Shown: positions 44,637 to 62,176 of the stretch, one piece after another | Numbering within the stretch: the stretch's first letter is position 1 | How the letters are laid out: the number at the start of each line of letters is the position of its first letter | From: Candidatus Hermodarchaeum yapensis | GTDB lineage: Archaea; Asgardarchaeota; Hermodarchaeia; Hermodarchaeales; Hermodarchaeaceae | Assembly (NCBI GenBank): GCA_016840405.1 | Contig: JAEOSK010000011.1 | Span: 2,634-66,633 of the forward strand | DNA length: 64,000 nt | Direction: 5' to 3' | Made by a program: the position numbers and the translations under genes | The notes under the pieces: generated by a model | Seen by the model: only the letters and a program-made list of their open reading frames with translations | Told to the model about the DNA's origin: nothing | The model's database searches: none

Positions 44637-44751
44637 GCCGCGGTAGCCAAGTGGTTTACGGCGCAGGCCTGGAAATTCTCGATTACTAAACGAGAACCAA
44701 TCAGCCTGTGACCCCTGGGTCGCACGGGTTCGAATCCCGTCCGCGGCGCCA
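44637..44751 (+). tRNA. tRNA-Ser (anticodon GGA) with a 28-nt canonical intron (44675-44702) and encoded CCA
   Basis: Acceptor GCCGCGG/CCGCGGC. D-loop with GG. Anticodon stem CAGGC/GCCTG, loop CT-GGA-A. Long variable arm GACC-CCTG-GGTC. T-arm ACGGG-TTCGAAT-CCCGT. The intron after position 37 forms a bulge-helix-bulge: central CTGG/CCAA, bulges AAA and TCA, inner helix TTCTCG/CGAGAA. Confidence 0.9.
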
Positions 44752-60773: not shown

Positions 60774-61235
60774 TTATTCCTCCGTTAATACAACTTCAAC
60801 GTTAACCATTTGTTCATTGAAGGCCGTTGACCGCCCACGCGCCCTTTCTATGAACCGTTTTAGCATCCGACCAGGATAAGCCGAAATATGCGTAATACGA
60901 AGCCGATCAAGGTCCAACCCCTTGTAGTCCGCATTATTCTCCGCGTTTTCTAAAACTCGTAAAATTGCTTTTGAAGCTTTCACCGGATACCGTCCGGAAT
61001 CCGCTTTGTATAACCCTCGTCGATGACCCACCTTCTTGTCATACCGACGATAAGGCACAGCTTGGCGCATGGCTATGACATCTTCGAGGTAAGTTTTTGC
61101 CGCCTCTAACCTGAGCCCACGAAGCTCATTACAAACCTCCCGGGCTGCTTTAGGCGACATACGAACCTCACGTCCTCTAGCCTTGGCAGTTTTGTCTGGA
61201 TCCAAACCAATTATTGAATAGCCGAATTCAGGCAT
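60774..61235 (-). CDS. rpl22: Ribosomal protein L22 (uL22)
   Basis: 'MPEFGYSIIGLDPDKTAKARGREVRMSPKAAREVCNELRG'. Start set at ATG 61235. The 34 upstream codons of the ORF-track ORF lie in the structured non-coding region. Confidence 0.9.
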   Translation of the reverse strand: MPEFGYSIIGLDPDKTAKARGREVRMSPKAAREVCNELRGLRLEAAKTYLEDVIAMRQAVPYRRYDKKVGHRRGLYKADSGRYPVKASKAILRVLENAENNADYKGLDLDRLRITHISAYPGRMLKRFIERARGRSTAFNEQMVNVEVVLTEE

Positions 61236-61269
61236 GGGTATCCAACCTAACGTGGTTAAGTCACTCACT

Positions 61270-61625
61270 TTGCGGGTTGCAGCTACAACGAACCGAAAGC
61301 CACATGACCCTCGGGACTGGTCCGCACTCCCAAACAACGTGAGAGCAGAGGGGGAGAACTACAGTGCCCTATATAAGAATTCTGCTAGTCTGTGCCGTTG
61401 TCCGAAACTTACCCAGCTAGGACACCTGACTGGCGTTCGGTTCCTGCATCATCGACGGGCACTGCCCCGTAGGGCTGTCACCTCCCGCCTCAAGATAGGC
61501 GTTTTCGGTCTCCGCGCAACTCGCGGCGACCCGAGTATTACAGGGTCTGGTTGCCTTTTATAGGTGGCCACTCCACGGGAGAAGTGAAGGGCAGAGGTTA
61601 CCATTCAGCCGGGTTCCTGACCATA
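61270..61625 (-). ncRNA. Candidate large structured RNA, identity unresolved (SRP/7S-like or RNase P-like hints only)
   Basis: About 350 nt without a credible ORF, GC-rich relative to its flanks. Local hairpins lie at 61455-61470, 61486-61501, 61507-61531 and 61564-61576. Nested long-range complementarities are 61481-61491/61342-61352, 61500-61508/61330-61339 and 61543-61547/61306-61310. Several pairs are G-U only if the minus strand is transcribed. Confidence 0.4.
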
Positions 61626-61669
61626 GGTTGCCATCACCGGGAATAAATTCATCAGCAGTCGTTAACCCC

Positions 61670-62176
61670 TTAATGGTCTGCGTCCAATGCCACGGGCTCC
61701 GAGCCCGTTACAATCACGTCTGGAAGGACCTTTCGATGCTTCCGAAGAAATGCTAAATCAGCCTTCTGATCCCGACCCGAATCAGGAAGCAACTCCGGGA
61801 TACTCGCAATACGAGAACCAATCGGATAGAACCGCTTACATTTTTCGCAGCGAAGAGCACCCACATTAATTTCGAGACCATGGAAATATTCGACCAGTGG
61901 CACAACATCCATAGGATCCGGCTTCTGCCGAGACAAACTAGCAAACACTTGCCGCGCCTTCGTCAACCGTTTGTCAAAGGTCTTATCCTTCGAGAGATTG
62001 TGGACAGGTTCCAATGATGGCTCACTTAGCACACCCTTCTGATGATGCACAATCAACTCCCCCGCTAACCCCTTTTTATCCTTCAACCGATTTGTCTCCA
62101 CTTGAACCACATAGGTCGTAAGCGGATGTTCCTTACAAATCGGACAAGCCAAAATATTGAGCAACCAGGGCTTCAT
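61670..62176 (-). CDS. Trm112-like zinc-ribbon protein, long form with central insertion
   Basis: The N-terminal 'LLNILACPICKEHPL' and distal 'LRCEKCKRFYPIGSRIASIPELL' together form the Trm112 (DUF343) knuckle. About 85 aa are inserted between the halves. Start taken at Met12. Confidence 0.65.
   Translation of the reverse strand: MKPWLLNILACPICKEHPLTTYVVQVETNRLKDKKGLAGELIVHHQKGVLSEPSLEPVHNLSKDKTFDKRLTKARQVFASLSRQKPDPMDVVPLVEYFHGLEINVGALRCEKCKRFYPIGSRIASIPELLPDSGRDQKADLAFLRKHRKVLPDVIVTGSEPVALDADH

Follow-up and report, generated by a model that had tools for sequence, protein, structure and literature searches.

What fills the 434 nt that separate a Trm112-like gene from the ribosomal-protein gene rpl22 in Candidatus Hermodarchaeum yapensis? 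We considered this question on a stretch of 64,000 nt (GenBank assembly GCA_016840405.1, contig JAEOSK010000011.1, positions 2,634 to 66,633 of the forward strand), which we call the window and whose coordinates are used throughout. Both genes lie on the minus strand, on which gene order is read here: the stop codon of the Trm112-like gene (TAA) occupies 61670-61672, the ATG of rpl22 stands at 61235, and the gap between them covers 61236-61669. A sequence-only reading of this gap had described a single structured RNA of about 350 nt, either a divergent or permuted signal recognition particle (SRP) RNA or RNase P RNA, or a new class. We find that the gap is a chimera of an inserted mobile element (61395-61665) and the host promoter and leader of rpl22 (61236-61394). 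In our estimation it is highly probable that the inserted part is a non-autonomous IS607 mini-element carrying a stand-alone TnpB omega RNA, with the promoter and leader of rpl22 making up the remainder. Below, G000 denotes the source genome, other G-numbers denote further genomes, C-numbers contigs and L-numbers loci.

An insertion polymorphism upstream of rpl22

A DNA search of 40 relatives revealed three behaviours along the gap. The sequence 61200-61396 is conserved upstream of rpl22 within the same genus (72-96%), 61395-61531 is a repeat dispersed through each genome in many copies, and the rest of the gap is unique. In a pairwise comparison of syntenic loci, 271 nt were found to be precisely absent from five sister genomes (G005, G002, G011, G014 and G012), at whose empty sites the Trm112-like stop is joined within a few bases to ...GGCACAGACTAGCAG / GGCACAGACTAGCAGAATTCTTATATAGGG. 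In the window this junction is broken by 271 nt, from 61665 down to 61395 (TTAACGACTGC...GGACAACGG), and the two junctions read ...AAGG GG|TTAAC...CAAC GG|CACAG. Because GG is present at both junctions, the ends of the element can be placed only to within 2 nt. Presence in the window and absence at the sister sites make this segment an insertion polymorphism, as is characteristic of mobile elements. Since it is absent from sisters whose flanks are 92-95% identical, the insertion is not old. Homologues of the element that share its architecture and its size of about 270 nt, called type A below, are located at unrelated loci in G009, G001, G005, G007 and G004, which argues that the unit of about 270 nt moves as such and did not arise by decay in situ. 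The element in the window is protein-less and lies on the minus strand, with two TATA boxes in its left end of about 135 nt; its right end is a complete scaffold of 137 nt.

The sequence-only reading had found no credible open reading frame (ORF) between the two genes, and we likewise found none in 61236-61669. Three frames are listed for the gap: one of 109 aa on the plus strand, one of 51 aa on the minus strand, and an rpl22 extended to a TTG start. They are without family support and run across sequence that relatives lack. The 109-aa ORF has no Pfam match and its frame straddles the insertion boundary, while the N-terminal extension of rpl22 and the 51-aa ORF fall in sequence that is absent or non-coding in relatives. 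The GC-rich stretch pointed out at 61270-61625 is also real, with a GC content of 57% compared to 46% over the whole window. For annotation purposes, the mobile element explains why spurious ORFs and a GC-rich island occur upstream of rpl22.

A dispersed omega-RNA family linked to tnpB

The source genome has 10 full and 2 partial copies of the repeat at 61395-61531. The family set used in this work consists of 53 copies from this genome and its relatives, 26 of them linked to tnpB and 27 without tnpB upstream. In the 26 linked copies (Pfam and tblastn), the scaffold lies on the strand of tnpB and either overlaps its 3' end or comes directly after it; the window copy itself has no tnpB and is thus solo. 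Two contigs, C6 and C76, have intact ORFs that extend into the repeat; measured from stop to stop, these are 424 and 409 residues long, respectively. Their proteins contain HTH_OrfB_IS605, OrfB_IS605 and Cas12f1-like_TNB (Pfam). The closest solved structures to proteins of this type are those of ISDra2 TnpB (E=5e-61). The tnpB of C6 is intact, encoding a 421-aa protein in its 424-residue frame, in which the RuvC motifs GVDVG, IESL and DRDLNA are visible.

The repeat always ends ...AACGG, and the 24 nt downstream are unrelated between copies; sequence that is specific to each copy beyond AACGG indicates the boundary of guide and flank. At the window, the insertion boundary coincides with the 3' end of the scaffold. 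A TnpB omega RNA is defined by a conserved scaffold whose sequence overlaps the 3' end of tnpB and stops at the right end of the element, with a copy-specific flank after it; 61395-61531 (minus strand, 137 nt) is a scaffold of this kind. The family is present in 17 of the 18 genomes of the taxonomic family. Sampling over the phylum showed it in 39 of 151 genomes, and in 12 of 52 genera. Phage and plasmid collections contained no match to the scaffold.

Two observations concern the TnpB proteins of the source genome. The protein of C76 (G000:C76:~410-1636; 403 aa in the 409-residue frame) is otherwise intact and has DRG instead of DRD at RuvC-III, the glycine aligning with the second Asp of DRD in the closest solved TnpB-like chain; judging from this substitution, C76 may encode a nuclease-dead variant or be a decaying copy. 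In addition, the TnpB TNB domain has 32 matches in the 2.7-Mb genome and only five of these are linked to the omega-RNA family of the window, so several other families of TnpB and omega RNA must coexist with it.

Structure of the scaffold RNA

The consensus structure calculated by RNAalifold from the 53 copies consists of six helices with 31 pairs, 18 of which show compensatory double changes. In the window copy, on the minus strand, helix 1 pairs 61530-61522 with 61516-61508, helix 2 pairs 61499-61496 with 61446-61443, helix 3 pairs 61489-61484 with 61459-61454, helix 4 pairs 61475-61471 with 61468-61464, helix 5 pairs 61440-61437 with 61405-61402, and helix 6 pairs 61433-61430 with 61416-61413. 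For this 31-pair structure, 96.0% of cells are paired and 123 are double-change cells; none of 500 shuffles reached any of the five measures, and slid controls were 33-50% paired. The nearly invariant loop of helix 1, GUUG (61520-61517), is complementary to CAAC (61400-61397) at positions -6 to -3 before the guide. Pairing in this pseudoknot reaches 97.6%, and one of its pairs shows 7 double changes (pair types GC 42, CG 5, AU 1, UA 1 and GU 2). The structure including the pseudoknot has 35 pairs, of which 20 show compensatory changes, and is 96.2% paired; again none of 500 shuffles was as good, and slid controls reached 32-48%.

With the covariance model R1, the window copy has the highest score of the genome, 151.4 bits over 61531-61395, and 34 of its 35 pairs are canonical. 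Solo copies are slightly less paired than tnpB-linked copies (94.9% vs 97.5%). The protein tail of C76 matches the window copy in two different reading frames, which places the constraint on RNA and not on protein. In this way a well-defined archaeal TnpB omega-RNA family is documented, with its structure and pseudoknot derived from covariation and with a working covariance model.

These results bear directly on the structural claims made for the gap. Local hairpins had been seen on the minus strand, and covariation confirms them within 61395-61531 in the form of the six helices and the pseudoknot; the whole gap, however, folds like its shuffles, with minimum free energy (MFE) z-scores of +0.5 on the minus strand and +0.2 on the plus strand, and is not better folded than they are. 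The G-U pairs taken to indicate a minus-strand transcript agree with our counts, as 120 of the 1849 paired cells are G.U, which fits the minus (tnpB-sense) strand. The long-range pairing of 61481-61547 with 61306-61352, on the other hand, was equalled by 17% of shuffles. It would also tie the inserted element to host sequence which, in sister genomes, is present although the element is not. Of the single RNA of about 350 nt, what stands is a structured RNA on the minus strand, but it is only the 137-nt scaffold within a 271-nt insertion, the remainder being promoter and leader of rpl22.

Tests of SRP RNA, RNase P RNA and a C/D-box small RNA

We scanned the whole window against Rfam at gathering thresholds and the region 61100-61800 at E<=10. 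The former scan returned only a tRNA elsewhere in the window, and the latter only two noise matches, mir-981 (15.5 bits) and sR10 (11.2 bits). Neither the archaeal SRP RNA model (RF01857; helices 5, 6 and 8 with conserved loops) nor the archaeal RNase P model (RF00373; CR-I to CR-V in order) matched anywhere in 61100-61800, even at E<=10. Canonical genes for both RNAs were found on other contigs of the same genome, with full-length matches of 120.8 bits for Archaea_SRP (G000:C24:22360-22699) and 166.2 bits for RNaseP_arch (G000:C17:9705-10091). The resemblance of the locus to these two RNAs is that they are GC-rich and hairpin-rich archaeal RNA genes; a structured RNA is truly present on the minus strand, and the sequence-only reading pointed to short strings resembling SRP and RNase P motifs. 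However, these strings have no score in Rfam, the locus is below noise for both models while both real genes lie elsewhere (two outcomes that this reading had itself named as refuting it), the region is a chimera of insertion and host sequence, the MFE z-score is about 0, and the long-range pairing is at chance level. We consider that there is next to no chance of the gap being one RNA of about 350 nt of the SRP or RNase P kind, divergent, rearranged or permuted, or of a new class, stand-alone omega RNAs being a kind already known. The false lead of a new or permuted SRP or RNase P RNA is removed by this result.

The weak sR10-like match raises the separate suggestion that 61601-61659 (minus strand) encodes a C/D-box small RNA, and UGAUGA and CUGA strings are indeed found there. 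Against it, the score of 11.2 bits (E=4) compares with a gathering score of 45, a proper D' or C' box is lacking, the box motifs are not kept in the homologous mini-elements, and the sequence is unique in the genome. We rejected the string as a chance resemblance and regard a small RNA of this class as extremely unlikely here.

Left end and predicted promoters

Solo copies of the family have at least three types of left end. Type A has 12 members, namely the window copy and 11 from five other genomes, and its left part of about 135 nt contains a terminal palindrome, a first TATA-like box, a TTCACTTCTCC hairpin and a second TATA box. Types B and C have a left end of about 30 nt, which contains a TATA box and is fused directly to the scaffold. 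In the window, the terminal motif TTAACGACTGCTGAT (61651-61665, minus strand) is a degenerate copy of the family palindrome TTAAC-AGCTG-TTAA; in the alignment of the 12 type-A mini-elements, L043 has a perfect covarying palindrome, TTAACCGCGGTTAA. The first TATA-like box, GAATTTATTCCC (61639-61650, minus strand), where type-A elements have a conserved TTTTATACCC block, matches the left-end promoter position of full-length elements, whose TATA box directly follows the GGG flank. It is followed by the small hairpin TTCACTTCTCC-CGT-GGAGTGG (61568-61588, minus strand), whose TTCACTTCTCC block is conserved in type-A elements, and then by the second TATA box, CCTATAAAAGG (61554-61564, minus strand), with its centre about 27 nt upstream of the 5' end of the scaffold. 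We predict the latter to be the promoter of the omega RNA.

A TATA-like 8-mer starting at -40 to -24 from the scaffold is present in 25 of the 27 tnpB-less copies, mostly at -28 to -33, compared to 6 of the 26 tnpB-linked copies and 24% of random genome positions. About half of the studied copies are thus gene-less with their own TATA box, which fits guide RNAs and nucleases circulating as separable modules. The left part of the window element has no second copy in the genome. The possibility that its 135 nt are a decayed remnant of tnpB coding sequence was rejected, as tblastn gives only a 32-residue tail that overlaps the scaffold.

Assignment to the IS607 family

The left flank of the element, GGGG (61666-61669, minus strand), stands directly after the Trm112-like stop. 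We take it as the target site with a putative target-adjacent motif (TAM), AAGGGG, that would include the GG crossover dinucleotide; the empty sites of the sister genomes already have a G-run or AGAGG. All 12 type-A left flanks are G-rich, 10 ending in GGG and two in AGG or AAG, so that 11 of the 12 end in GG. Examples of left flanks across elements are AAGGGG, GAGGG and AAGGG, and right ends read ACGG. No target duplication was found at the window copy. In G029, a complete genome of another family, locus L092 has a Resolvase-domain tnpA (1498-2064, 188 aa) overlapping tnpB (312-1508), followed after tnpB by an R1 match of 129.9 bits at 298-435. A serine-recombinase tnpA, tnpB and omega RNA in this order are canonical for IS607. 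In the IS607 elements described in the literature, each end has a strict GG core dinucleotide, inverted repeats and target duplication are lacking, and the TAMs are TGGG or GAGGG/AGGAG (bioRxiv 10.1101/2023.11.20.567912; PMC11061315). Because of the G-rich flanks ending in GG, the ACGG right end, the lack of target duplication and the gene order in G029, we file the window element, on its sequence features, as a non-autonomous, protein-less derivative of the IS607 family, similar to palindrome-associated or miniature inverted-repeat transposable elements (PATE/MITE-like).

Guide segment and proposed function

The predicted guide is the host flank just 3' of the scaffold, CACAGACUAGCAGAAUUCUU (61375-61394, minus strand), which overlaps the upstream edge of the rpl22 promoter described below. 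At the empty sites of the sister genomes the guide sequence is identical (an exact match of 17-20 nt) and is preceded by G-runs. No second match of this guide was found in its own genome, and hence there is no sign of a trans-regulatory role. Second targets were also sought in the own genome for 10 guides, and none was convincing. The one 16/16 match belongs to the copy on C10, where the first 16 nt of the guide (G000:C10:6202-6217) are perfectly matched 8 kb away at C10:14133-14148 (E=0.004); that match is preceded by CATTTG, not by a G-rich TAM-like motif.

We propose that the second TATA box would give a transcript starting at about 61531. This RNA of about 155 nt would read through the scaffold into the host flank, with its 3' 16-20 nt (CACAGACUAGCAGAAUUC..., 61394-61375) as guide. 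A cognate TnpB from elsewhere in the genome, such as the intact one of C6, would bind the RNA in trans, and the complex would cut element-free alleles having a G-rich TAM and a guide match (CACAGACTAGCAGAATTC target). Homologous repair from the occupied copy could then restore or spread the element by homing. Retention by homologous repair has been shown for other TnpB systems (bioRxiv 10.1101/2023.03.14.532601; bioRxiv 10.1101/2023.11.20.567912; PMC10691335). Self-cleavage is presumably avoided, since the TAM position beside the occupied flank reads ACGG. Mobilisation itself would need the serine-recombinase TnpA in trans.

Several points weigh against an active mini-element. Given its degenerate left-end palindrome, the window copy may no longer be mobile, and one scaffold pair (A36.C86, helix 2) is broken in it. 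The putative TAM was assigned from flanks alone. Neither a Y1 nor a serine-recombinase TnpA was found in the own genome (86% complete) or in any of the 18 genomes of the taxonomic family (72-91% complete; Resolvase in 0 of 18). These points, except for the TAM and the broken pair, together with the slightly lower pairing of solo copies, would also suit an element of the same identity that is an inert, decaying relic, neither transcribed, nor used by TnpB, nor mobile. Such a relic, however, is hard to reconcile with the top model score of the window copy in the genome and its nearly complete pairing, with a TATA box at the right distance in solo copies of three left-end types, with an insertion that is not old, and with an intact cognate tnpB on C6. 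We regard it as rather unlikely, and favour the functional stand-alone omega RNA.

Other insertions of the family

Despite the lack of a detected TnpA, 17 of the 18 family genomes carry the omega-RNA family, often in many copies and at sites differing between species. It is of interest that the occupied sites differ among related species, yet a transposase went undetected in 18 related genomes. Two pairs of solo copies, G000:C18:5353-5493 with L037 (G005) and L031 (G003) with L038 (G009), come from different species but have the same flanks and guide; they are orthologous insertions kept since the species diverged.

The spacer between the Trm112-like gene and rpl22 was also hit in G007, where a full element with a 412-aa tnpB (L010) is inserted 7 nt from the site of the window. 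This insertion is independent of that in G000, and two independent insertions within a few bases of each other, beside an essential ribosomal-protein promoter, are of interest in themselves. The tnpB element at L010 is flanked by a 13-nt direct repeat, TAGCAGAATCCTT (G007:C15 L010 339-351 and 1638-1650), which is unexpected since IS607/IS605 elements make no target duplication. The left copy of the repeat is followed by GGG, without the TATA box that the right copy keeps.

Predicted promoter and leader of rpl22

The motif CAGAATTCTTATATAGGG (61367-61384, minus strand) hardly varies among 13 of 14 genomes, which represent two genera, although the sequence around it diverges; G007 has the variant CAGAATCCTTTTATAGTG. 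It is always located between the Trm112-like gene and rpl22. On this conservation, it is likely the B recognition element (BRE) and TATA box of the rpl22-rps3 operon. The 5' leader of rpl22 (61236-61366, minus strand) is about 110 nt long and contains a Shine-Dalgarno-like GGTTGGAT before the ATG; within the genus its identity is 82-96%. Around a variable centre, in which L059 has a 30-nt insert, it has two blocks that hardly vary, GCTCTCACRTTGTTTGGGAGTGCGGACCAG and CTGCAACCYGCAAAGTGAGTG (61317-61346 and 61262-61282). In the sister genus the same promoter is followed by another leader of equal length. A structured regulatory leader for this ribosomal protein is possible; the RNAalifold structure of the leader in 10 genomes has only one compensatory pair.

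The overlap of the predicted guide with this conserved BRE/TATA suggests a further alternative, in which the RNA has been domesticated: a TnpB, perhaps a dead one, would bind the rpl22 promoter with the window RNA in the manner of TldR, or transcription from the element promoters would continue into rpl22. In favour of this, the element has the orientation of rpl22, the cognate TnpB of C76 has G for the aligned RuvC-III Asp, and the same spacer was struck in both G000 and G007. However, a guide that equals its own flank is obtained by construction in every transposon-borne omega RNA, the TAM position is occupied there by the right end ...ACGG instead of a G-rich motif, five sister species use the same promoter without the element, and a second genomic target was not found. 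We consider domestication at this promoter very improbable. Only slightly more credit, still that of a long shot, can be given to the wider idea that solo omega RNAs with their own promoters are used as trans guides by the host or by a nuclease-dead TnpB such as that of C76, or to the related idea that, in a lineage with no detectable TnpA, TnpB and omega RNA alone make the elements spread by homing. If the former were true, ribosomal-protein transcription could be modulated via the guide of the window copy, which lies on the rpl22-rps3 BRE/TATA.

Neighbouring genes

As rps19 usually precedes rpl22, we considered whether the gap could be a decayed rps19, and rejected this since stops occur throughout all three frames. 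The true rps19 is located at G000:C30:67462-67707 on the minus strand (about window 64829-65074), about 830 nt past the window end. The gene is thus not missing: it shares the strand of rpl22 and is found about 3.6 kb upstream. Three genes stand between the two: one for a helix-turn-helix protein, one for a YdjM-like membrane protein on the opposite strand, and the Trm112-like gene, whose adjacency to rpl22 is retained in both genera of the taxonomic family. The tRNA gene found by the Rfam scan (window 44637-44748, plus strand, 49.8 bits) is 112 nt long. Two introns are suggested by its inserts, one of 30 nt in the region of the anticodon loop and one of 12 nt ahead of the T arm.

Comparison with known systems

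In the omega RNA of ISDra2 TnpB, known from cryo-electron microscopy, nucleotides -5 to -3 pair with a 5'-proximal segment as a pseudoknot (PMC10097598). The window family is similar in that its scaffold, which has several stems and a length of about 120-140 nt, shares sequence with the 3' end of tnpB, and in that a pseudoknot joins the nucleotides immediately before the guide to a segment near the 5' end. It differs in that there is no sequence similarity and its structure is known from covariation alone, whereas ISDra2 belongs to the IS200/IS605 family with the TAM TTGAT.

The TldR nuclease-dead repressors (bioRxiv 10.1101/2023.11.30.569447) are comparable insofar as the guide of an omega-like RNA lies on a promoter and C76 is without the aligned RuvC-III Asp. 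In contrast to them, no dedicated dead-TnpB gene lies beside the window RNA, whose guide is simply the insertion flank of an element that is absent from sister species.

With the IS607 TnpB elements, namely CboIStron (bioRxiv 10.1101/2023.11.20.567912) and ISFba1 with its RAGATH-18 right-end RNA (PMC11061315), the window family has in common the GG dinucleotide at either junction, left flanks that resemble a G-rich TAM (RGGG or GAGGG), the lack of target duplication and terminal inverted repeats, and the order of serine-recombinase tnpA, tnpB and guide RNA, here in G029. The differences are that the window scaffold is not RAGATH-18 (no Rfam match), that the scaffold of this family overlaps the 3' end of tnpB, and that the window copy is without tnpA and tnpB, with tnpA not found in the 18 family genomes.

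The closest parallel in layout is given by solo omega RNAs. Stand-alone mobilised omega RNAs acting in trans have been documented (Altae-Tran et al. 2021, as summarised in PMC10691335), as have omega-RNA-bearing PATE-like elements in Geobacillus stearothermophilus (Meers et al., bioRxiv 10.1101/2023.03.14.532601). Like these, the window copy is a complete, protein-less omega RNA bounded by transposon ends, with its cognate TnpB elsewhere in the same genome and the adjacent flank as guide. Unlike them, its host is archaeal, its ends are of IS607 type and not IS200/IS605 hairpin ends, it has a predicted archaeal TATA promoter of its own at about -30, and about half of the studied copies are solo. 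The type of element is thus already known, and its local interest lies in the TATA box of its own, the large share of solo copies, the wide spread over the phylum, the lack of a detectable transposase in the taxonomic family, and a position 10 nt from an essential promoter.

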